Below are positions 4,257 to 63,994 of a stretch of 64,000 bases of DNA, piece by piece. This DNA is from Escherichia phage PHB11, in sequence record MK524176.1, one strand, 5' to 3'. The number at the start of each line of letters is the position of its first letter. Within the stretch, counting starts at the first letter, position 1. The position numbers were made by a program, and so were the translations under genes. The notes below the pieces were generated by a model. That model had not been told where the DNA came from. It made no database searches and was given only the letters and a program-made list of their open reading frames with translations.

Positions 4257-9619
<5,363 letters not shown>

Positions 9620-16523: not shown

Positions 16524-17423
16524 TTATTTACCTACTGACAAAGGTGCTTCAATCTTTCCTGCATGTTGATAGTTGCTAATACCACCAATAAAGTCACTTG
16601 CAGTGAGATGTTTTAAGTCACTTAAAGTGTTAAGTGGGATACCAATCTCAAAAGTTGGTGCATGGAACTCTTCATTGTTCATTAGTTCATAAACCTGCTT
16701 CATGTGGTTCTGATAAATCTGAGTATCTCCAAAGACACCTATCAAATATCGTGGAGTGTATCCAGTCATCTTACAAAGAACTTCCAGAATAAAACCATAA
16801 GATGCAATGTTAAACGGAAGTCCTAAAAAGGTGTCTACAGAACGCTGATACCATTGTAAGTCAACTTCACCCTCGTTAGTGATATAAATCTGAAACAGAA
16901 CATGACAAGGTGCTAGAGCCATTGAGTTTGCTGCAATATCTGCTGCATTCCAAGCATTAACAAGCATGTAACGGTCTGTGATATCACCCTTCATCTTCGT
17001 TACTAAGGTCTCTAACTGGTCTACAACACAACCATTATGACCTTCAAAGTTTCTCCACTGAACTCCATAGATTCTTCCACCTGCATCTTCTAACCAATCT
17101 TGTTCAGAAGAATAATTAGAGCTTAACCAACGTTTAAAATCATCTGACCAGATAGTCCAACGTTCTCCGTCATTTTCACCCCAAGTGCGGTAACGGAGTT
17201 CACCAAGCTTATTCTCACCATTCAGGAACCATAAAGCTTCTCCGATAACTTGCCGTGTAAACACCTGTTTAGATGTTAAGAGTGGGAAACCAGTTCGCAT
17301 ATCAAAACGAAACTGAGGTGGAGCAAATGCAGAGATAACATCTCCAGTTCGTGTGGTACGCAGTTCACCAACTGATAAAACATGGTTCAGGATATTTTTG
17401 TAACTCAAATCTGCTTGTGACAT
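16524..17423 (-). CDS. thyA: Thymidylate synthase
   Basis: ThyA-type active site MALAPCHVLFQIY and LGLPFNIAS (Asn retained, as in dUMP-specific enzymes); DHFR gene adjacent. Confidence 0.85.
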   Translation of the reverse strand: MSQADLSYKNILNHVLSVGELRTTRTGDVISAFAPPQFRFDMRTGFPLLTSKQVFTRQVIGEALWFLNGENKLGELRYRTWGENDGERWTIWSDDFKRWLSSNYSSEQDWLEDAGGRIYGVQWRNFEGHNGCVVDQLETLVTKMKGDITDRYMLVNAWNAADIAANSMALAPCHVLFQIYITNEGEVDLQWYQRSVDTFLGLPFNIASYGFILEVLCKMTGYTPRYLIGVFGDTQIYQNHMKQVYELMNNEEFHAPTFEIGIPLNTLSDLKHLTASDFIGGISNYQHAGKIEAPLSVGK

Positions 17424-23638: not shown

Positions 23639-24154
23639 TCAACTTAGTTTTGCAAACTCTCCGTGGAGTTTTATCGCAGCTTCACAGTAAGCTTTATGGG
23701 CCTCTTCTTCTGTTGTGTACGTCCCGATATGTATAGTCTTACCATTATGGCTAATCTGGGCTTTCCACTTACCAGACTTACTTCTACTTGTACCTTTTAA
23801 GTTTTTTGATGTTCTAGGTTGCCTCCTATTAGACATGTTCTGTTCTTTTGTGGCCTCTCTAAGATTGTCCCAAGCATTATTCAAACCGTTCCCGTCTTTG
23901 TGGTCAATATGATTGTCAGGCCACTTACCTGTCATCCAGAACCAAGCAATTCGGTGATTGCCTGTCCTGTATCCTAAAATCTGGGTTTGCATATACACAC
24001 CAGACCTTGTGCGCTTGATTGTACCAGCCTGTCTTCCAATCACCACCCTACTGCTATGTGGAGGTCTGCCAATCCAAGTCAAGACCCCTGTTTCGGGGTC
24101 GTAGTCTAACCAAGATTTTAACTGTTCATGTGTGAATCCACAATCTCTCATCAA
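23639..24154 (-). CDS. HNH homing endonuclease with AP2 DNA-binding domain
   Basis: HNH_3-type motif HIDHKDGNGLNNAWDNLREAT and AP2-like block GKWKAQISHNGKTIHIGTYTTEEEAHKAY; 4 nt overlap with the DNA polymerase gene. Confidence 0.7.
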   Translation of the reverse strand: MMRDCGFTHEQLKSWLDYDPETGVLTWIGRPPHSSRVVIGRQAGTIKRTRSGVYMQTQILGYRTGNHRIAWFWMTGKWPDNHIDHKDGNGLNNAWDNLREATKEQNMSNRRQPRTSKNLKGTSRSKSGKWKAQISHNGKTIHIGTYTTEEEAHKAYCEAAIKLHGEFAKLS

Positions 24155-26850
24155 TGTACCTCATACCACGATTTACCAACCTTACCAGTACCTGTAACAA
24201 GTGTTTCTTTCTTTAGTCCTAAGTTTTTAGAAGCTTGTCCATAATACCAATCAGTGACAGCTTTCACCTCTGCCGTCATACTTTCTGGGCATTCCCAACT
24301 CGTCTCATCGTGATAGGAGCACAATAAACGAGCACCTATAGCTGGTTTGCGACCGTTTAACTTCATCAAACCTTCGTCAATCATACGACGACAAGCGAGG
24401 TTAATTGCTTCATTCTGAATCTGGCTTTCCGAACCCATGAGCAAATAATTCAATAACTTATGTGGAGATTTACACCACAACCAAGCTCCAGCAACCTTTA
24501 CAAAACCCCCTTTAGAGATTGCAGCAGTCTTACCAAACACCTCTTCAAGTGCCTTTTTAGTCGCTTTGTAGTCAGCTTCCAAGTCATCTAGTAGCTTCTT
24601 AATCTTAGGCAAACGGATAAAGTAAGTCTGTTTAGTCAGTGCACCTTCCTGAGTAGTTGCAGCTTTAATTGTCTTAGCAAACTTCTCATCACCTGCACCA
24701 AACAGTAGTGCATAGATACCATTCTTAGCTTTCTTACGACCCTTGCTAATCTCATGAAGAAGGTTCTCATCCTGAGTAGCTCGACAAGTCAAGATATCCT
24801 GCTCATCATTCAAGCTAAAGTAAATACTATTCAGTGTGTGTGCATCAGTCCCTGAATAGACAACGTAAAGGTCATTCTCAGAGTCATAACGCAGATACTT
24901 GTCAACTTCTGGGTTAAGGTACTCATCAAAATGTTTGCAGTAATAGCGTCCATCTTCTTGACGAATAAACTCAATCTCTTCTTTACCTTGCGTTACCGCT
25001 TTGGTGAAGTCTTTGTCACCCATAAAGTTACAAAGGAGAACTAGCTGGGCTGAGTTCATGTCTACAGAGACAACGTTAGTACCTTCTTCACAAATCCACA
25101 CTGCCCTCATTGGCTCACCGTAAACAGCAGCACCAGAAGGTACGTTTACAATACCATACTGAGTCATACGTCCAGTAGAAGTACCAAACACCATTGCACC
25201 AGCACTAAGGCGACCATCAGGACGAATCTGGTTCAACCAACCTTTTTCATCATCTTTTGAGTTCTCAATAGTTCTGCGTCGGTGCATCAAAGTATAGTAT
25301 TTAGCAATCTTCTGTCCAAGCTCACCTTCAATCGTATCATAAGATGATTCAGTAAGTTTTGGTGAAGTACGGATTAAGCAAGGCTCAAGCAAATCTGTGT
25401 ACTTCTTCACAGACCAGTTATGCTCAATGTACTGGACACCTTCGTGTTCAACATAACTCAAGCCACATCGTTCAACCATCTCCTGCCACTTAGGATGCTT
25501 TGTAATCATCTTTTTGTTGTCTTTGAAACGACAAACTTTGACAGGACGACCGTCAGAGTCTTTCTTGTAGTTCCAGTCATCTGGAATCCAACCAACTGAT
25601 TTCAAGTAATCTTTAACAACTGCTACCTGAGTCATACGAGAAACTTCGAACTCAATTGGTGTATATGGTGCATCAATCAAACCTGTGTAGCGACTTGACT
25701 CAAGCTCAAAGTGGTTAACGACATGGCTGTTATAGTACTTCACAGTTTTAACTGTTTTTACTGGCTTCCAGTCTTTGCACTTCTTACCAATCTTTGCATT
25801 CAACTCATTGCAAATTGCACGAGCATCCTTCATTGCTACAAAACCTTCCTTGTACTCTTCACCAGTTACAGAGTTGGTTGGTGTATAGCAATTCCGCTTT
25901 TCAATGTTAAAAATCTTTGTAGTTGGCTTACCAAATGGCTTGATTTCGTATGTCTGCATCTCACCGTTACGTACCTGTTGACGATACTTTGTCTTAGGGT
26001 ACTTGGTAATTCTCTTCAGTCCATCTGCATGACCGAATGCTTCAACATACTCATTCCAAGCTTTTGCAAACTCTTCTCCAGTGACTTTACCTTTGGTCTT
26101 AATAGTTGGAGGAAGATGTGGTTCAACCTCTGAAGCAAGCTCATTAGTCAACTTGTCAAGTTCCTTTACATGGAACTCCATAAGCTCTTTATCAGCTTTC
26201 CAACCATTGATAGCTTGTTGACTCATCCAGAAAGATGTTTCTTTAGCTCGCATATAGGTTTCATAGGTATCTATGCCACACTTCTTTAGCTTGAGATATT
26301 CATTATCCAGTGCACGTTTAGTTTTGGCGTTAATACGGATATCTTCTACAACACGAGTGAAGATTTCTGCATTCCACACACCCCAATGTTCAATCTCTGG
26401 TTTACGTACACCAACACGAGCACCCCATGCTGCCAAGCCATGAGCACCTTTATAGCCCTTTGGAGTTGGTCTATCCATCCACTGAACACGAGACTGGATA
26501 AGAGAATCCTGAAAGAAATTACTCCACGGCTTACACTTTGGATTATCAAAGTTCCACAAATCAGGTGCAATGTGATTGAAAACCCACCAGTCATATCCCA
26601 GACCATTATGGATGCAAAGTCGTTTTGCCTTTAACGCAAACTCAACACCTTCACGCAAGCCACCCTTAATGTACTTGGTATACTTGTGACCGAGGATAGG
26701 CTCATCTGTAAAGACCCATACAGGTGGCTCTTCATCGTCAGATTTATAGTCTGCGAAAGCCATTACGTGCACTTTAGTGAACTCAAGGAGTAAACCATCA
26801 GTTTCTGTATCACCAACTAAATGTAAGTTTTTAAAATCTACGTTTTCCAT
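24151..26850 (-). CDS. DNA polymerase, family A (T7 gp5-like) with 3'-5' exonuclease domain
   Basis: Exo I VGDTETDG; motif A DMNSAQLVLL; motif B RKKAKNGIYALLFGAG; motif C SYHDE; start set at the Met preceded by GAGGGAG SD (ORF track begins at 26880). Confidence 0.85.
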   Translation of the reverse strand: MENVDFKNLHLVGDTETDGLLLEFTKVHVMAFADYKSDDEEPPVWVFTDEPILGHKYTKYIKGGLREGVEFALKAKRLCIHNGLGYDWWVFNHIAPDLWNFDNPKCKPWSNFFQDSLIQSRVQWMDRPTPKGYKGAHGLAAWGARVGVRKPEIEHWGVWNAEIFTRVVEDIRINAKTKRALDNEYLKLKKCGIDTYETYMRAKETSFWMSQQAINGWKADKELMEFHVKELDKLTNELASEVEPHLPPTIKTKGKVTGEEFAKAWNEYVEAFGHADGLKRITKYPKTKYRQQVRNGEMQTYEIKPFGKPTTKIFNIEKRNCYTPTNSVTGEEYKEGFVAMKDARAICNELNAKIGKKCKDWKPVKTVKTVKYYNSHVVNHFELESSRYTGLIDAPYTPIEFEVSRMTQVAVVKDYLKSVGWIPDDWNYKKDSDGRPVKVCRFKDNKKMITKHPKWQEMVERCGLSYVEHEGVQYIEHNWSVKKYTDLLEPCLIRTSPKLTESSYDTIEGELGQKIAKYYTLMHRRRTIENSKDDEKGWLNQIRPDGRLSAGAMVFGTSTGRMTQYGIVNVPSGAAVYGEPMRAVWICEEGTNVVSVDMNSAQLVLLCNFMGDKDFTKAVTQGKEEIEFIRQEDGRYYCKHFDEYLNPEVDKYLRYDSENDLYVVYSGTDAHTLNSIYFSLNDEQDILTCRATQDENLLHEISKGRKKAKNGIYALLFGAGDEKFAKTIKAATTQEGALTKQTYFIRLPKIKKLLDDLEADYKATKKALEEVFGKTAAISKGGFVKVAGAWLWCKSPHKLLNYLLMGSESQIQNEAINLACRRMIDEGLMKLNGRKPAIGARLLCSYHDETSWECPESMTAEVKAVTDWYYGQASKNLGLKKETLVTGTGKVGKSWYEVH

Positions 26851-26910
26851 TTTTACTCCCTCTAAAATCATTAACCCCATACATTACTGCAAAAAATTAT
26901 AAAAAGCAAG

Positions 26911-26940
26911 TTGACAATGTACTTGACAAGGTGTTAATCT
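26911..26940 (+). promoter_or_regulatory. Candidate rightward promoter(s) in the divergent pol / 27108 intergenic region
   Basis: Two TTGACA hexamers (26911-26916, 26923-26928) with only weak -10 candidates (TTAATC/TAATCT); a perfect TATAAT on the - strand at 26896-26901. Confidence 0.3.
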
Positions 26941-27107
26941 TTGCGAAGTGGGTTTTTACTTAAAAGGTTACTTAACAGTTTAACTATACAGATACTTTAA
27001 AACTCTTAAAAGATTATTTAATAGCTTTTAAAAAGCTTTAAAGTATAACGTATAGAATACGTTAAGATAAAAGATTAAAACTTAATAGTTACTTAAAAGA
27101 GGCTTAC

Positions 27108-27530
27108 ATGCAGAAAATGTTTGTTCACCCAGACATAGCTGACTTTGTTAGAGCTTTGCAGAAGTTGGAAGAACTTGACATTGCTGCTCAACGGGAATAT
27201 GCTCACCATCACAGGAGAATGGTTGATATACAACATGAAATAGAGTTGTCTGAAAACTATGAAGATGACTTAAAATGCTCTGTGTTTGAGCATATGAAAG
27301 ATGTTGCTACAGCGAGACGTAAAGCTAAAGACACAGTTGCTTTACTAGATTCTCTTAAAAAGAGGTTGCAAAGTGGTACAGACCTGTGTAATCTAGCGTC
27401 ACTGATTAACGATGTTGAAACTTCTTGGGATAGGCATTACTATCCACGTTCTGAAAAGACACTTGACTTTTCTTCATCTGAAAACTTAAAATGTTCTAGA
27501 AAGAAACTTAACCAACTGAGAGAGAAATAA
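27108..27530 (+). CDS. Hypothetical protein
   Basis: 140 aa ORF, first gene of the rightward operon. Confidence 0.4.
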   Translation: MQKMFVHPDIADFVRALQKLEELDIAAQREYAHHHRRMVDIQHEIELSENYEDDLKCSVFEHMKDVATARRKAKDTVALLDSLKKRLQSGTDLCNLASLINDVETSWDRHYYPRSEKTLDFSSSENLKCSRKKLNQLREK

Positions 27531-27531
27531 T

Positions 27532-28344
27532 ATGAATACTACTGTAGACCAGATGCTTGAAGAAAAAGGTATTGACGAAGCATTCTTAATCAATGCCGTA
27601 GAAAGCATGGCTATGATTCTTCGTGGAAACAACTACACAGAACAGTTTATGCCTGCAAGCTATAACTTGCCTAAAGACAAGTCTGATAACGGTGCTTTTG
27701 CAGAACAGGTTAATATGATGCTGTGTGATAAAACACTTGCTTTAGCATCTATCGTTGTAGGTGTTGATGCTCTTGCAGAGTTCATTTTCTATGAGATGCA
27801 GAAAAATGACTATATTGCCATGACCTTTGAAGAAAAAGACTCGCTACTGCTCTTAGGTTATGATGAGCTAGTTGACCTGTTAATCTCGTCAACGAGTGCT
27901 GTTATGGCTGCTCTTGAGAAGCGAATGGAAGAGAAGCTGTCACGGTATGAAAAACTTGATTGGGGTGTAGAAGAGTTAAACCCACGAATCAAAGAGATTA
28001 TCCAGCAAACTAAAGACTCTTTAGCAGAAGCCGTGAAAGATGATTCTGTAGCTGATGTAGAACCACTACAGGTTAAGGTTGCTCTGATGATTCCTGCTAT
28101 CTCTACAATGATGAATATCGTTGCACTAATCCAACTTTCTCAGATGTTGGGTGTAACCATTGAGTTCGTTGAGGAGATGACTGGTGGTGTCAGTATGCAA
28201 GCAATTAATGATGTTTTGGTAAACATTGGCGCTTCAATCATTGAAGAGAAGCTTCGCATTAACTTTGGTGACGATTTTGTGAAGCAAGTCTCAGATATGG
28301 CTGAAAAAGAGCAATCACAGATTACTAGTGACCAACTGCACTAA
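27532..28344 (+). CDS. Hypothetical acidic protein
   Basis: 270 aa ORF starting 2 nt after the upstream stop. Confidence 0.4.
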   Translation: MNTTVDQMLEEKGIDEAFLINAVESMAMILRGNNYTEQFMPASYNLPKDKSDNGAFAEQVNMMLCDKTLALASIVVGVDALAEFIFYEMQKNDYIAMTFEEKDSLLLLGYDELVDLLISSTSAVMAALEKRMEEKLSRYEKLDWGVEELNPRIKEIIQQTKDSLAEAVKDDSVADVEPLQVKVALMIPAISTMMNIVALIQLSQMLGVTIEFVEEMTGGVSMQAINDVLVNIGASIIEEKLRINFGDDFVKQVSDMAEKEQSQITSDQLH

Positions 28345-28361
28345 GTCTTTATAAATCTTAC

Positions 28362-28387
28362 AAGCCTCCTTAGTTGGGGGCTTTTTA
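28362..28387 (+). terminator. Intrinsic terminator
   Basis: AAGCCTCC-N6-GGGGGCTT hairpin followed by TTTTT. Confidence 0.5.
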
Positions 28388-28405
28388 GTAATTAAGGGAG
28401 ATAAA

Positions 28406-29149
28406 ATGAGTAATATTATTGCATTTACTGGAAAGGCACGTTCTGGAAAAGACACCTCATGTTCTATTGTTAAGAATATCTTAGAAGATGAGTATGGCTA
28501 CAATGTTGCAGTAATGGCCTATGCAGACAATCTTAAGCTATCTGCATCAAAGATATTTGACTTGACATGGAATGACCTGTACGGTGAAACTAAAGAGACT
28601 CCACAGGTCTTTGATTTATCATACTCTGAACTTATGACTAAAGTTACGGAAGCTATGGAGTTCACCTTCAGAGATGAACGTTACCATATGGACTTTAAGC
28701 TTATGTCAGAGTTAACCGGACGATTAATCATGGAACTTAAGAAGGTTGCTAAACCGACTCTATTGACACGTCTGGGATTTAGCAAAAAGTATAAATTCTC
28801 ATCAAGACAAATTCAACAGATTTGGGGCACTGAAGTAATCCGTAAAGTTATGGGTGACAAGTTCTGGTCTAAAGACCTTGAAAAAAGAATGGTAAACTTC
28901 TTTGACGTTTGCTCACTTAGGAATCAAGAAGGTGTTGTTTTAATCAGTGACTTAAGGTTTGACTCTGAAGCTGAGTGGCTGAGCAGATTTGCACACCAAA
29001 CTATTGAAGTAAAAAGAGACAATGTGGACAAGGTTTCATCACATGTTTCAGAAAATGGAATTTCTACCAAATATGCGCGTGACATTATCCATAATAATGG
29101 TACTCTTGAAGACCTTGAAAGCAAGCTAAGAGCTATCCTGAAAATTTAA
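28406..29149 (+). CDS. Deoxynucleoside monophosphate kinase (T4 gp1-like)
   Basis: P-loop FTGKARSGKDT and C-terminal HNNGTLEDLESKL resembling T4 dNMP kinase. Confidence 0.6.
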   Translation: MSNIIAFTGKARSGKDTSCSIVKNILEDEYGYNVAVMAYADNLKLSASKIFDLTWNDLYGETKETPQVFDLSYSELMTKVTEAMEFTFRDERYHMDFKLMSELTGRLIMELKKVAKPTLLTRLGFSKKYKFSSRQIQQIWGTEVIRKVMGDKFWSKDLEKRMVNFFDVCSLRNQEGVVLISDLRFDSEAEWLSRFAHQTIEVKRDNVDKVSSHVSENGISTKYARDIIHNNGTLEDLESKLRAILKI

Positions 29150-29157
29150 AAGAGAGA

Positions 29158-29358
29158 ATGAAGATGAGAGTAAAAGATAATTTTAAAGTTATTGACCATC
29201 GTTTAGTGGAACTCTCATCTCTTTCCAATGAGGTAATGATTGAACGTCTTAAGAGAGTTGAATCACGAAGGAAAGAGATTGCAGATGAAATTCATGAACT
29301 GGACAAGATTGAAAACGGATTGAAGGCAGAACTACAACGAAGAGGTGCTAATGTCTAA
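29158..29358 (+). CDS. Hypothetical coiled-coil protein
   Basis: 66 aa ORF. Confidence 0.35.
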   Translation: MKMRVKDNFKVIDHRLVELSSLSNEVMIERLKRVESRRKEIADEIHELDKIENGLKAELQRRGANV

Positions 29359-31336
29359 AGGTCGTAAATTGAAAGAGGCTGGTCAGTTTATTGGTCATTG
29401 TGCATGTCCACGTTGTGGTTCATCAGATGCTGGTTCAATCTACCATCATGACGATGATTCTTATTCGATGACTTGCTTTAGCTGTAACAAAGGTTTCCCA
29501 GAGTGGGATTTTGATAAAGGACAAATCGTGAGCACTTATTCTACTGGTTCAGATAATAAAAACCGTACTTTCCGTGGAATGGATTTAGACGATGTAAAAG
29601 AAAACCTAGAAGCAATGGACTTGAAAGACAGGAAGATTCCTGCAAAAGTTCTTGAACGCTTAGGTATCAAGGTTGACATTGACAGTGACGGCGAAATTGA
29701 CGCACATTTCTATCCAACTTACAAACGTAATGAAGATGGTAAGCTAGAGCACGTCGGTTATCGTGTACGTCACCGTTACCCAGAAGACCACCCAAAAGAA
29801 CATCTACGCGGTAAGTTAAAAGACTTTTCAGGTGGTGTTGGGGACATTAAAGGTGAACTGGCAATGTTCGGTTCATGGATTGCTCCAGAAGGCGGTAACC
29901 GTCTATTCATTTGGGAAGGTGAGATGGAATGTGCCACAGCAATCTACATGACTTCTCTGGCGATTAAAGATAAGTCTCGTCGTAAGAATTACTGTCACGT
30001 ATCTGTTCCATCAGGTGCAAACATTAAGTCTATCAAAGACAACTATCAGTACATTACATCATTTGATGAGATTTACTTGTGCTTTGATAACGATGAAGCA
30101 GGTGCTAAAGCTACCAAAGAAGCTGCTGGTATCCTACCTATTGAAAAGGTTCGTTTATTCCAGTATCCAGAAGGTGTAAAAGACCTTAACGAATGGTGGA
30201 CAAAGTTCTATAAAGAGAAAGACACAGTTCTGGAAGGATTTAAACAGCGTATCTACAACGCACCTCGTTACTGCCCTGCTGGTATCAAGAACTTCGCAGA
30301 TGGTTTTGAGGCAATGAAGAATCGTGGTCAGATTCCATTGATTCCTTTCCCAGAATCTTTCGGGGATTTGAACAGGTTGACTTATGGTGGTTACGGTTTA
30401 GGTGAGATTACAACTCTGGCAGCACCATCTTCAGTAGGTAAATCAGCATATACCCGTGAAATGATTTACACTGCTTGGAAGGAAACCGATTATAATATTG
30501 GTGTAATTCCTGTAGAAGATACCTATGAAGAGTTGATGGAGATGCTCTGTGCAATTCATCTAAGCAAGCAGATTTCTGAGATTCCTTATGATGAACGTGA
30601 TTGGGATGAATTGAAGGAAGCACACGCAGAACTATCTAAAGGTCGTCGTATCCATATCGTTGACCATCAAGGGGCAATTGACCAAGATAACCTACTGGAA
30701 TTTGTTGACTATCTTGTTAACAGTTTAGACTGTAAGATTATTATTCTTGACCCTATCACGTTAGCTCTGTCACGTTCAGATACGGATGAAGAGGAAGTTT
30801 TGTCTGAGCTATTGCGTCGTTGCAAACGCTACCAGTATGCACAGGTAAACGTATGTCACGTTCGTAAGAGTGCAGGTGGTCAGAAAGCTAACTCTGAAGG
30901 TGGAGATATCTCTGAAGAGGATATTAAGGGTTCTGGTGCATACTTCCAGATTTCCATGAACAACATTCTGTTAATGCGTAACAAGGTTGACCCAGACCCT
31001 GTTAAGAAAAACTTGACAAAAATCAAGTTAACTAAGTGTCGTCGTCATGGTAAGTCAACAGGTATTGCTGGTCATACTTGGTACAATCCAGATACAGGAC
31101 GTCTTATCAAAGCTTCTGGATGTGGTGTTGACATTGATGGTGCAGCAGAAAATATTCGTCAACAGTTTGGCATTGGTGAAGCTGAAGACCATTATGATGA
31201 CTCTTTACCTCATTATGAGGATGAAGTGTTTGACCGTGAGACTGGTGAAGTCTATACTGAAGAACAGCGTCAAAGCTCAACGATTCCGCCTGTATTAAGT
31301 GAGGATGCAGATGACTGCCCGTTTGAAACTGAGTGA
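29345..31336 (+). CDS. Bifunctional DNA primase-helicase (T7 gp4-like)
   Basis: N-terminal zinc ribbon CPRCGSS...CFSCNKG; Walker A APSSVGKS in a DnaB-like C-terminal domain. Confidence 0.8.
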   Translation: MLMSKGRKLKEAGQFIGHCACPRCGSSDAGSIYHHDDDSYSMTCFSCNKGFPEWDFDKGQIVSTYSTGSDNKNRTFRGMDLDDVKENLEAMDLKDRKIPAKVLERLGIKVDIDSDGEIDAHFYPTYKRNEDGKLEHVGYRVRHRYPEDHPKEHLRGKLKDFSGGVGDIKGELAMFGSWIAPEGGNRLFIWEGEMECATAIYMTSLAIKDKSRRKNYCHVSVPSGANIKSIKDNYQYITSFDEIYLCFDNDEAGAKATKEAAGILPIEKVRLFQYPEGVKDLNEWWTKFYKEKDTVLEGFKQRIYNAPRYCPAGIKNFADGFEAMKNRGQIPLIPFPESFGDLNRLTYGGYGLGEITTLAAPSSVGKSAYTREMIYTAWKETDYNIGVIPVEDTYEELMEMLCAIHLSKQISEIPYDERDWDELKEAHAELSKGRRIHIVDHQGAIDQDNLLEFVDYLVNSLDCKIIILDPITLALSRSDTDEEEVLSELLRRCKRYQYAQVNVCHVRKSAGGQKANSEGGDISEEDIKGSGAYFQISMNNILLMRNKVDPDPVKKNLTKIKLTKCRRHGKSTGIAGHTWYNPDTGRLIKASGCGVDIDGAAENIRQQFGIGEAEDHYDDSLPHYEDEVFDRETGEVYTEEQRQSSTIPPVLSEDADDCPFETE

Positions 31337-31810: not shown

Positions 31811-32668
31811 ATGTCTAAAGTTGTTAAAATGAAAGCTCCGGTAGAGAAGTACAATGGTACTGAACGTCAAACTCTGCGTTACCTGCTGAAAGATGTTTGG
31901 TTTTATTACCTGAACACTTCACCACGTCCGGGAAAAGGTAAGTCCATTGATAAGAAATTCCCAGGAAAAGACTGCAACTACAGTGTTTCAATTCTGGCAG
32001 AAGACGGTAACAAGCTGTTTAAAGAATTTACTAAGTCTAAGAAAAACCCAGAAGGTTGGGATAAAGTTACTACTGAAGCGGTTGATGCAGACGACTTCGA
32101 AGAGAAGTTTGGTTGCAAACCACCATTTGAAGCAGACACTTACTACATCTTGAAAGTAAGTCGTGCAGCAGCTTATAAAGATGGTGCTGTGTGGACAGCT
32201 AAACAGTCATTCCCTGTAATGCTGATTGAAGAAGTAAATGGTAAGCGTGTAGCTGTTAAACAGCCGATGAAGAAAATCAAAGCTCAAGCATCTGATAAGC
32301 ATGAAGATGACAAGAACTATGATGTAATTCATCCAGATATTGCAGTTGGTAACGGTTCTTTTGGTAGTGTGATTCTTTCTACTCACTTCTACACCTTTGA
32401 GAACAATGTTCTGACAAAACCTATTCAGGAACAGTTTATCATTGATACTCTTGTACCTTACACTGGTGGTAACGGTGCTAATGGCGAACCTGAACTGGAT
32501 GAAGACGAACTGGCTATGCTTGGTCTTGATGGTGTTGAAGATAACGGTGAAATCACTGAAGAAGATGCAAAAGACCACAAACCTTCGAATGATTCTGATG
32601 ATGGTGACGATGAAGACTTGCCAGACCCAGATGACGAAGAAGATGAAGACTTCGATACAGAAGACTAA
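31811..32668 (+). CDS. Single-stranded DNA-binding protein (T7 gp2.5-like) candidate
   Basis: Highly acidic C-terminal tail ...DDEDLPDPDDEEDEDFDTED with aromatic residue; location in the replication module. Confidence 0.5.
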   Translation: MSKVVKMKAPVEKYNGTERQTLRYLLKDVWFYYLNTSPRPGKGKSIDKKFPGKDCNYSVSILAEDGNKLFKEFTKSKKNPEGWDKVTTEAVDADDFEEKFGCKPPFEADTYYILKVSRAAAYKDGAVWTAKQSFPVMLIEEVNGKRVAVKQPMKKIKAQASDKHEDDKNYDVIHPDIAVGNGSFGSVILSTHFYTFENNVLTKPIQEQFIIDTLVPYTGGNGANGEPELDEDELAMLGLDGVEDNGEITEEDAKDHKPSNDSDDGDDEDLPDPDDEEDEDFDTED

Positions 32669-62090: not shown

Positions 62091-62119
62091 TTGACAATAC
62101 CCCTTGACATTGGTAATGT
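62091..62119 (+). promoter_or_regulatory. Additional promoter-like element with tandem TTGACA boxes
   Basis: TTGACA at 62091 and 62104; TAATGT 17 bp after the first. Confidence 0.35.
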
Positions 62120-62187
62120 TGTTCGAGGGGGTTTATCTAAAAGGGATTCACTTAAAAGATTCTTTATAGATAAACTGAAAAAATTGC

Positions 62188-62278: not shown

Positions 62279-62809
62279 ATGAACAAGTTCAAAGCTATCA
62301 ATTACATTCGTTCAAATAGTGTTATGTCAAAACCTGTTAAAGACACTTACGAATTCCGTTGCAATGGTGTACACTTCGCAACCATCACCAAATCAGAAAA
62401 CGGGGCTTATTACGTCCATCGCCGTAATGTTGCAACTGTTGTAGTCTCTCATTTTATGCAAGCTATCGCGGAATTATTACCGTTATTCTTAGAGATTTAT
62501 CTAGATGATTGTAAAAACGTTCACAATCACGTTAAAAACCTTTTAAATGGTTATAAAATGGCTTATGAACGTTCTATCAAGTCCTTGAACAAGTTCTATA
62601 AAGCCCCTGTAAATACCGTTTCAATGGCCTACGGTATAGGTGGCTGGACTGTTAACCTTTCTCTAGTGGAAGAAATCGAACTTTATGATTTACGTCCTAG
62701 CGGTTACTCTAAGACACTGGGAGAAGGTTTAACGTTCAATATCAAGAACTTAGAAAAAACTTTAAAAGATATTGAAAAAGATATTGACGAGACAATCAAA
62801 AATCTGTAA
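62279..62809 (+). CDS. Small early-region protein, unknown
   Basis: Start set at MNKFKAI (62279); the track start 62234 reads through the TIR. Confidence 0.45.
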   Translation: MNKFKAINYIRSNSVMSKPVKDTYEFRCNGVHFATITKSENGAYYVHRRNVATVVVSHFMQAIAELLPLFLEIYLDDCKNVHNHVKNLLNGYKMAYERSIKSLNKFYKAPVNTVSMAYGIGGWTVNLSLVEEIELYDLRPSGYSKTLGEGLTFNIKNLEKTLKDIEKDIDETIKNL

Positions 62810-63191: not shown

Positions 63192-63529
63192 CGTCTAGCG
63201 AATCCTTATACAATCCCTTTCCACCTCCTTTCTAGAATCTTATCAGACCTTAAAAAGCAATAACTCTATAGCTTACTCTATAGCCCCTTATCAAATCAAC
63301 TTAAATATAAGCCCATAACCCGAAAGGGAAGGGCAACCATTAATTGGTATTGTTACCAATCCCTAAAACGCTCTATAAAGCTCTATAACAGCCTTATCAA
63401 TCTAACTTAAGGGATTGCATTACCTCACCCTTAAAAGCCCTTTATAGAGCTTCCCAGAGCCTTAAAAGAATCTTATAAGGGTGTGAGCTTTATCATCTCG
63501 TTAGCTATCTTGTGAATAACTAAAAAGGG

Positions 63530-63994
63530 CTTGTTAGTGTCTTAAAAGTATGTTATAGGGGCTTAAAAGTTACTTTGAAGTAGCTTAAAAGTTACTTTGA
63601 AGTAGCTTAAAAGTTACGTAAATGCTAGCCCCCTTAACATTTTCTTAACAATTTCTTAACAAACCCTACATAGTTATGCTTTTAAGGCACTTGTTAGCAA
63701 CTTGTTAGCCCCTTGTTAAATCTCTGTTAATACCTCGTAAAAGCCTTGTAAGAGCCTTTGGCATAGCCTTTAAAGCCCCTGTAAAGCCCTATAAAGAGCT
63801 TTCTATATAGTTGGGGTGTAATTACTAGAAAGAGACTAAAAAGAGCTTATAAGGAGCTATAAAGGGCTTTTAAGAGGGCTATTTAAAAGGTCACTAAGAG
63901 GGAAAGGGAACGATAAGAAAAGAGATAGTGACCATGTTAACAGCTTGTTAAAAAGATTAAACACTTGTTAGGAACTTGTTAATTATCTTAACAA
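63530..63994. repeat. Cluster of CTTGTTA(R) motifs in both orientations in non-coding DNA
   Basis: CTTGTTAG/CTTGTTAA at 63530, 63690, 63701, 63712, 63944, 63964, 63975; inverted CTTAACAA at 63644, 63655, 63987. Confidence 0.6.
63561..63617. repeat. Tandem direct repeat, 22 bp unit, about 2.6 copies
   Basis: GCTTAAAAGTTACTTTGAAGTA at 63561 and 63583, partial copy at 63605. Confidence 0.7.

Follow-up and report, generated by a model that had tools for sequence, protein, structure and literature searches.

The window analysed here is a stretch of 64,000 nucleotides (nt) of Escherichia phage PHB11 (sequence record MK524176.1), and this work concerns two adjacent open reading frames (ORFs) on its plus strand, called here gpA (27108..27530, 140 amino acids (aa)) and gpB (27532..28344, 270 aa). 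The reading that we favour, tentatively and with somewhat less than even confidence, is that gpB would be an intracellular accessory protein linked to phage DNA replication, with one face that binds a conserved partner and another that is variable, and that gpA would be its auxiliary or regulatory coiled-coil partner. This reading is proposed because the locus is in fixed linkage with the genes for the DNA polymerase and the primase-helicase, because the knock-down of a gpB orthologue has a fitness phenotype, because gpB is absent from published virion inventories, and because the Felix O1 counterparts of both genes fall in the same class as these replication genes by reverse transcription polymerase chain reaction (RT-PCR).

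Both genes are already catalogued, as Felix O1 gp97/gp98, as PHROGs 4039 and 4251, and as agp047/agp048 of phage SUSP1. What is new here is the removal of an unsupported label from gpB, the cassette structure, the conserved control region, the gpB hotspot of variation, and the connection with a fitness phenotype that was already on record. Phages of the Felix O1 type have a classical use in the typing of Salmonella, and among the records matched in this work many come from phages isolated against Escherichia coli (E. coli) O157 and Salmonella. Replication and expression timing in phages of this type are still undescribed (PMC3185647).

A conserved gene pair in the replication module

A megablast search with positions 26800-29400 matched 254 phage records, mostly at 90-99% identity. 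Nearly all are of the genus Felixounavirus, from Escherichia, Salmonella, Shigella or Citrobacter, with Escherichia phage KEP2 at the top (99%), and the PHB11 locus belongs to this genus (Felix O1-type). Given that orthologues of both genes are present in more than 250 phage records and that the ratio of nonsynonymous to synonymous substitution rates (dN/dS, or omega) within the genus is low, at 0-0.05 for gpA and 0.10-0.18 for gpB, the two are, as judged by sequence comparison, genuine genes under purifying selection and not chance ORFs. The coordinates and plus strand assigned to them in a preliminary description of this DNA were confirmed. Direct orthologues with the same position and order are Felix01p180/p181 of Felix O1 (gp97/gp98 if the polymerase is gp96), 104/105 of wV8, agp047/agp048 of SUSP1, and gp35/gp34 of Moogle. 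Their identity to gpA is 99-100% within the genus and 62-76% in Suspvirus and Mooglevirus; for gpB it is 84-98% within the genus and approximately 42% between genera.

The order of polymerase on the minus strand followed on the plus strand by gpA, gpB, dNMP (deoxynucleoside monophosphate) kinase, a small ORF and primase-helicase is shared by Felixounavirus, Suspvirus and Mooglevirus. For gpB, the conserved linkage to the polymerase and primase-helicase genes holds down to 21-26% identity: in metagenomic relatives at this level the gene still immediately precedes dNMP kinase and primase-helicase, and in one of them, L006, it directly follows the divergent polymerase. In this metagenomic lineage (L006/L007) the gpB relative directly follows the polymerase control region and gpA is absent. 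Conversely, Erwinia and Pectobacterium relatives keep gpA (44-50% identical), and carry in the position of gpB non-homologous acidic proteins of 273-283 aa with an isoelectric point (pI) of 4.4-4.7. Alignment of the gpB profile by hhalign with the same-position proteins of Arno162 and Erwinia Coenus gave a probability below 1%, and IMG/VR scans for relatives of these two proteins returned nothing further. Since each gene is found without the other, gpA and gpB are, on this comparative evidence, not an obligate pair.

The gpA ATG is preceded by a good Shine-Dalgarno sequence (AAAAGAGG), and the gap from the gpA stop to the gpB start is 1 nt (TAAtATG), where Moogle has instead a 17-nt overlap. 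Right after gpB, at 28362..28386 on the plus strand, an intrinsic-terminator-like hairpin (AAGCCTCC-ttagtt-GGGGGCTT) is followed by a run of five T residues (T5), with a predicted free energy of -13.4 kcal/mol and a z score of -2.9. The records of wV8 and Moogle carry a terminator annotation at the corresponding site, and Rfam gave no matches across the window or at the locus. The change in sign of the GC skew near 17000 and 27000 agrees with the published layout of Felix O1, in which a leftward unit ends in the DNA polymerase gene and a rightward unit begins just beyond (PMC3185647). The preliminary description had placed the two genes at the head of the rightward replication operon. Their position beside a divergent promoter-like region and ahead of dNMP kinase and primase-helicase bears this out; nonetheless, the hairpin splits them from dNMP kinase, and for this reason they look like a separate bicistronic cassette heading the rightward unit, and not simply the first cistrons of one long operon.

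In most annotated records among the matches listed, and in PHROG 4251, gpB is called a 'minor tail protein'. If sound, this label would be at odds with the earlier suggestion that these genes encode host-takeover or replication accessory factors; its origin was traced. The earliest labelled record found is that of wV8, where the sole note on gene 105 is 'similar to Felix O1 hypothetical protein'; the wV8 paper makes no mention of gene 105 and gives no basis for the label. The Felix O1 polymerase and primase-helicase are gp96 and gp101, respectively (PMC3185647), so that by position gpA and gpB correspond to gp97 and gp98, and both of these are absent from the protein list obtained by shotgun analysis of the Felix O1 virion (PMC3185647). 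For VpaE1, liquid chromatography-tandem mass spectrometry of the virion was reported by its authors to yield 22 proteins, which are the Felix O1 set plus gp54, gp58 and gp68. The counterparts of gpA and gpB (gp096 and gp097) are not among them and were annotated as hypothetical by the same authors. The accessible portion of the Bas63 cryo-electron microscopy paper, which deals with 23 virion gene products, contains no gpB-like protein in its descriptions. The gpB gene is not located in the tail and baseplate morphogenesis module, and lies between polymerase and dNMP kinase/primase-helicase in every relative examined. The protein itself has no sequence or fold similarity to characterised tail proteins in Pfam, NCBIfam and PDB, or by Foldseek in PDB and BFVD. 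Given that no virion, structural or positional evidence was found behind it, the label is propagated and unsupported, and the residual chance of a low-copy virion or assembly role for gpB is small. The correction touches most of the approximately 258 public genomes that carry gpB, plus PHROG 4251.

A functional observation comes from the CRISPRi-ART screen of SUSP1, in which 138 genes were covered in the host NEB10Beta and 19 were called "Fit". The gpB orthologue agp048 (42% identical) is one of these, with a fitness of 1.58 (p 0.029, 7 guides), while the gpA orthologue agp047 (76% identical) is Not Fit (0.39, p 0.59). Besides agp048, the Fit genes outside the structural set whose role is named or can be recognised are agp046 (DNA polymerase; 2.72, p 0.009), agp054 (a protein resembling single-stranded DNA-binding proteins (SSBs); 2.82, p 3e-7), agp055 (exonuclease; 1.87, p 0.005) and agp061 (NrdA). 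The remaining genes of the locus were Not Fit: agp049 (dNMP kinase; 0.33, p 0.57), agp050 (66-aa ORF orthologue; -0.47, p 0.75) and agp051 (primase-helicase; 0.93, p 0.17). The gpB result is unlikely to stem from a polar effect, because dNMP kinase, which lies downstream, is Not Fit. The screen authors counted agp048 among the tail proteins and filed it as "virion, Ambiguous, PHROGS", without the "FelixO1 MS" tag given to proteins confirmed by mass spectrometry (MS). Once the tail label is set aside, the replication-module genes of SUSP1 that score are those for the polymerase, the SSB-like protein and the exonuclease, together with the gpB orthologue. The fact that this orthologue matters in a laboratory strain of E. 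coli argues against a purely conditional role of gpB. False negatives occur in CRISPRi-ART, as stated in the paper itself, and the Not Fit call of the primase-helicase is probably one. The same call for gpA is weak evidence of dispensability, and suggests that gpA is dispensable, a false negative or a regulator.

For Felix O1, RT-PCR data place ORFs 96-99 and 101 in one class, whose maximum is at 25 min (PMC3185647, Table 3). The classes of this dataset mix structural and replication genes, with the peak of capsid gene 58 at 5 min and that of polymerase gene 96 at 25 min (PMC3185647), and it should not be used for calling genes early or late.

The module that surrounds the cassette in PHB11 is of the T7 type. 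On the minus strand, a family-A (T7-like) DNA polymerase of 909 aa (24151..26880) is recognised from its ORF, from the annotation of related records and from a PDB match to T7 gp5 (E 1e-10). On the plus strand follow a dNMP kinase (28406-29149; PF21448 at E 4e-23, and a PHROG match), the 66-aa ORF (29158-29358), which lies between dNMP kinase and primase-helicase, and a gp4-type primase-helicase (Toprim/DnaB, 29345-31336; Pfam and PHROG matches). The module also holds a gene annotated as exonuclease and an acidic-tailed protein of 285 aa. The latter (31811-32668, pI 4.5) ends in DDEEDEDFDTED, which we take to resemble the acidic C-terminal tail of T7 gp2.5-type SSBs; it is annotated as hypothetical in the related records examined, and its counterpart by position in SUSP1, agp054, has the strongest Fit score among the rows listed. 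The T7 replisome set comprises gp5 with host thioredoxin, the gp4 primase-helicase, the gp2.5 SSB, the gp6 exonuclease and the gp1.7 dNMP kinase. By contrast, gpA and gpB resemble no protein in the PDB, and no counterpart of either is known in T7.

Composition, predicted folds and evolution

The strong acidity of gpB noticed in the preliminary description was confirmed, with 47 Asp and Glu (D+E) versus 21 Lys and Arg (K+R) residues, a net charge of -26 and a pI of 4.23. The protein matches PHROG 4251 end to end (2-265 of 266, E 4.3e-142). An AlphaFold2 (AF2) model, with a predicted local distance difference test score (pLDDT) of 83 and a predicted template modelling score of 0.84, folds it into a compact all-alpha globule of 13 helices. 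Foldseek comparison of this model with PDB gave no match (best E 0.07, template modelling score 0.2), and with BFVD only the protein's own family. A search of 1.84 billion representative proteins with a gpB profile hidden Markov model returned only 10 matches, all from the same family. To judge from the predicted structure, the fold of gpB is apparently new and without a PDB counterpart. Two of its helices reach a Kyte-Doolittle 19-residue mean of 1.5-1.96. A membrane location was rejected, given the conserved Asp in one of these hydrophobic helices, the polar residues found in both among homologues, and the compact globular model. At the C-terminus (28315-28341), a low-confidence tail (pLDDT below 50) is followed by an [LIV]-[HQ] ending in nearly all homologues examined (QLH, QIH, TLH, VLH, RLQ and TIQ). 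Like endings are VVH in the non-homologous same-position protein of Arno162 and EVH in the phage polymerase, and the shared ending may be a terminal docking motif or a coincidence.

gpA matches PHROG 4039, of unknown function, over its full length (1-140/140, E 2.9e-83), and its homologues are confined to the Ounavirinae, the IMG/VR scan included. It is near neutral (pI 6.7). Its AF2 model (overall pLDDT 71) contains a long helical hairpin, formed by helices 8-50 and 53-88, with a pLDDT of 78-89 there. Foldseek of the model against PDB returned generic hairpins only (ROP, ESCRT-III, BAR; best E 0.12). The patch rich in His and Arg that had been noticed earlier is indeed present, as YAHHHRRMVD at residues 31-40, and an invariant block, HRRMVD[VI]QHEIELSE, adjoins the acidic tip of the predicted hairpin. 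E44, E46 and E49 are invariant in an alignment of nine sequences and positions 52-54 are mostly acidic; in Arno162, E49 is replaced by Gly.

The preliminary description could not assign either protein to a family and proposed remote homology searches and structure prediction, which were now run with the same outcome: neither the profile searches nor AF2 with Foldseek gave a characterised relative for either protein. Searches of Pfam, NCBIfam, PADLOC and, beyond the two families named above, PHROG with single sequences and all alignment members gave sub-threshold coiled-coil noise only, and PDB sequence searches with single sequences and profiles gave nothing below E 0.1. A Gam-like identity for gpA was dropped, the match to PHROG 259 having only E 0.09, as was a MazG/HD-type metal enzyme, for which there were no profile matches.

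The genes of the module evolve at very different rates. Within the genus, most comparisons give 99-100% identity for gpA, the 66-aa ORF, the primase-helicase, the SSB-like protein and also the polymerase (full range 92-100%). Identity is 93-100% for dNMP kinase and 84-98% for gpB. Between PHB11 and SUSP1 or Moogle, identity is 93-95% for the polymerase, 92-96% for the primase-helicase, 89-94% for the SSB-like protein and 90-92% for the exonuclease, and falls to 62-76% for gpA, 59-68% for dNMP kinase and 42% for gpB. The omega values of the window versus SUSP1 are 0.03 for the polymerase, 0.04 for the primase-helicase, 0.12 for gpA, 0.19 for dNMP kinase and 0.34 for gpB; those for the Moogle polymerase and primase-helicase are alignment artefacts and were disregarded. 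By these measures gpA, gpB and dNMP kinase form a fast-evolving island within a slow replication module, with gpB the fastest.

For gpA, dN was 0 in four of five within-genus comparisons. A description of it as ultra-conserved was dropped, because 100% within-genus identity is also found in the polymerase (in some genomes), the primase-helicase, the 66-aa ORF and the SSB-like protein, and it is further undercut by the fact that between genera gpA diverges faster than those proteins. The nucleotide diversity of gpA (0.016) and of the 66-aa ORF (0.013) is approximately three times lower than that of the primase-helicase (0.046). Since all three proteins are approximately 100% conserved, this difference indicates that in gpA and the 66-aa ORF either synonymous sites are unusually constrained or the segments were recently homogenised.

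Variation in gpB is concentrated in a hypervariable segment at residues 94-120 (27811..27891, plus strand), which in the model covers helix 99-107 and the start of helix 110-133. Nucleotide diversity reaches 0.12-0.26 over 27700-27900 versus approximately 0.05 elsewhere. Among 45 cluster representatives, 17 alleles are found at this hotspot, with identity down to 37% there versus at least 81% in the rest of the protein; the PHB11 window carries one of the rarer alleles, IAMTFEEKDSLLLLGYDELVDLL. Near-identical gpB alleles occur in both Escherichia and Salmonella phages. Residues 90-123 have a dN of 0.05-0.41, a dS of 0.25-2.3 and an omega of 0.15-0.56. Positive selection was dropped as an explanation because omega is below 1 and dS is high, a pattern of substitution that points to old recombining alleles or relaxed constraint. 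By contrast with the hotspot, blocks at residues 5-33, 77-86, 123-145 (AVMAxLEKRM..K..RY.KLDWG) and 240-258 are conserved down to 21-29% overall identity.

Possible functions of gpA and gpB

If the replication-linked reading that we favour is correct, gpA and gpB would be non-virion genes of the T7-like replication module, co-expressed as a short cassette from the divergent control region. gpB would be a lineage-restricted acidic protein that binds partners in the cell and acts as an accessory to phage DNA replication. The four conserved blocks given above would hold the conserved partner, and the patch at 94-120 would be free to vary. gpA, as a coiled-coil hairpin, would probably be an auxiliary or regulatory partner of gpB. 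Several observations weigh against this reading. Searches of Pfam, NCBIfam and PDB, and Foldseek, gave no homology or fold match of these proteins to replication proteins (SSB, clamp, loader, thioredoxin-like), and no factor of this kind is known to be required by T7-type replisomes. gpB evolves approximately ten times faster than the polymerase and primase-helicase (omega 0.34 versus 0.03-0.04; identity 42% versus 92-96%). The Fit phenotype would suit an essential role in morphogenesis or host shutoff equally well, and the SUSP1 primase-helicase is itself Not Fit. The RT-PCR timing is weak support for a replication link, because the Felix O1 classes put capsid gene 58 at 5 min.

A more specific form of the replication-linked reading is that in the Ounavirinae gpB would be an unrecognised part of the T7-like replisome, one that might, for instance, provide coupling or processivity to the enlarged 909-aa polymerase or to the primase-helicase, with gpA as its modulator. 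We regard this as possible and doubtful; if true, a replisome protein with a fold not in the PDB would have been concealed for more than 15 years by a wrong 'minor tail protein' label. An argument for a processivity factor from a thioredoxin-binding domain was dropped, the alignment of the polymerase to T7 gp5 being too fragmentary. The preliminary description had offered a helicase loader or an RNA polymerase modifier as examples of host-takeover or replication accessory factors. A replication accessory stays the best reading for gpB, whereas these two examples have no direct support. The primase-helicase at this locus is of the T7 gp4 type, and enzymes of that type load themselves.

The main rival is a role in host takeover, in which gpB would be an acidic nucleic-acid mimic or an inhibitor that neutralises a DNA- or RNA-binding protein of the host (a nuclease, a nucleoid protein or RNA polymerase) before it can stop phage replication, with the hotspot arising from an arms race. 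The net charge of -26 and pI of 4.2 would suit such a protein, as would its place as the fastest-evolving member of the module, with a hypervariable surface segment, and the finding that non-homologous acidic proteins of like size occupy the same position in the Erwinia and Pectobacterium relatives. The Fit phenotype also resembles that of essential host inhibitors, of which T7 gp2 is one. Like Ocr, ArdA and lambda Gam, gpB is helical and strongly acidic by composition; nonetheless, it has no significant sequence match to them, and Foldseek against PDB and BFVD gave no fold match to these or other mimics. Its charge density is moderate (17% D+E), and classical DNA mimics are more densely charged. 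Mimics of the Ocr, ArdA and Gam type are conditionally useful, whereas gpB belongs to the core genes and keeps a fixed position, unlike a variable accessory locus, and its orthologue is needed in a laboratory host. Also counting against this rival are a hotspot where omega below 1 and high dS point to old recombining alleles, and the near-identical alleles in Escherichia and Salmonella phages. The lack of a PADLOC match counts for little here, given that this library holds defence and not anti-defence proteins. Overall, host takeover appears rather unlikely. With the tail label removed, the screen makes gpB a concrete, testable candidate for a function in replication or host shutoff that is still missing, and its fold appears to be new.

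A second rival gives the leading role to gpA, which, perhaps with gpB, would regulate the temporal programme of the phage, either by a Gre/DksA-like insertion of its acidic tip into host RNA polymerase or as an autoregulator acting on the upstream region. Felix O1 has no known timing regulator (PMC3185647). The gpA gene comes immediately after the highly conserved region that carries the repeated CTTAAAAG motifs, and its synonymous diversity is approximately three times lower than that of neighbouring genes. Its predicted antiparallel hairpin of approximately 40 residues (pLDDT 80-89), with the invariant stretch H35-E49 and the acidic tip ELSE-x-Y-[DE][DE], is reminiscent of GreA/GreB, DksA and TraR in its general shape of two long antiparallel helices, in the conserved acidic residues close to the predicted tip and in the size of the protein. 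It differs from them in the absence of a zinc finger or a Gre-type C-terminal domain, and no match of gpA to these proteins was found in Pfam at E <=1, in PDB sequence searches or among the 50 Foldseek matches listed. As a resemblance of a predicted model only, this is a shape-only lead. DNA-binding families likewise gave no sequence or Foldseek match, the Foldseek matches being generic hairpins at E above 0.1, and the SUSP1 orthologue of gpA is Not Fit. Given that L006 keeps the motif array without gpA, gpA cannot be an obligate reader of that array. Besides, gpA is near neutral and gpB is far too acidic to bind DNA. Transcription control by gpA is thus improbable.

Still more improbable is the reading behind the public label, in which gpB would be a minor protein of the tail or virion, or else a chaperone of assembly needed for morphogenesis: the label is common among the records listed and in PHROG 4251, structural genes dominate the SUSP1 Fit list, a protein at three copies per virion could escape shotgun MS, and the accessible text on Bas63 describes one unassigned helical C3 density at the spike tip, but against this stand a label from wV8 without basis and tagged 'Ambiguous, PHROGS' by the screen authors, the absence of gpB from the Felix O1 and VpaE1 virion proteins, the lack of structural similarity to tail proteins in PDB or BFVD, a gene placed in the replication module and separated from the structural genes by the leftward transcription unit, and the attribution of the density, in that same text, to a baseplate-module gene.

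Control region and other features of the window

The intergenic control region (26881..27107) spans 227 bp between the polymerase (minus strand) and gpA (plus strand), and is presumed to hold a divergent promoter and a leader. It contains tandem TTGACA boxes at 26911-26916 and 26923-26928, 12 nt apart. After these comes a stretch rich in A and T, which holds four CTTAAAAG/CTTTAAAG motifs at 26959, 27005, 27036 and 27092, and an imperfect palindrome of 27 nt at 26992-27046. Such an arrangement is compatible with a conserved promoter of the host type whose -10 element (TAAnnT) is weak and whose leader is long. In the Felix O1 paper no obvious promoter was recognised at this place, yet divergent promoters were assumed (PMC3185647). 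Sigma-70-like matches also occur within gpA, at 27175-27203 and 27463-27492.

A comparison of 21 distinct Felixounavirus loci gave a nucleotide diversity of 0.003-0.014 over 26800-27200, versus approximately 0.03-0.06 in the adjacent coding sequence. The nearly invariant stretch is approximately 400 bp long and takes in the 5' ends of the polymerase gene and of gpA together with the intergenic region between them. It can still be recognised in Suspvirus, Mooglevirus and one distant metagenomic relative, although between genera gpA has reached saturation at its synonymous sites (dS 1.3-2.6). From its conservation, the invariant stretch looks like a cis-acting control element or, possibly, an origin.

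The same promoter-like architecture recurs at 62091-62175, upstream of a gene starting near 62280, where it reads AAAAAG..TTGACA-N7-CTTGACA..GGGGTTTA..CTAAAAGG..CTTAAAAGATT. A third copy is found in the metagenomic relative L006, at approximately 7690-7800, and the recurring architecture may be a phage-specific early-promoter module. Across the whole window, CTTWAAAG occurs 51 times versus 10.8 expected, a count reached in none of 100 shuffles, and its copies cluster at 26959-27099 and 63430-63874. The second cluster lies in approximately 500 bp (63380-63900) crowded with short repeats that are in phase at 10-11 and 22 nt. The repeat units include CTTAAAAG, CTTATAAG, CTTGTTAG, CTTAACA and CTATAAAG, and one 22-mer is present in 2.6 perfect copies at 63561-63617. 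This iteron-like layout could be an origin, a packaging site or a regulatory array.

At the other side of the locus, an ORF for an HNH/AP2-like homing endonuclease (23639-24154, minus strand) abuts the 3' end of the polymerase gene. The apparent diversity between genomes is very high over 24100-25100 (0.15-0.34), which is probably due to presence or absence of the endonuclease together with alignment artefacts. Finally, two records under other host names, GU169904 (Staphylococcus phage SA1) and MG065668 (Campylobacter phage A126), include sequence of the Felix O1 type, with protein identities of 88-99%. SA1 is marked as UNVERIFIED_ORG in one source name, and both records are likely to reflect contamination or mis-assignment.

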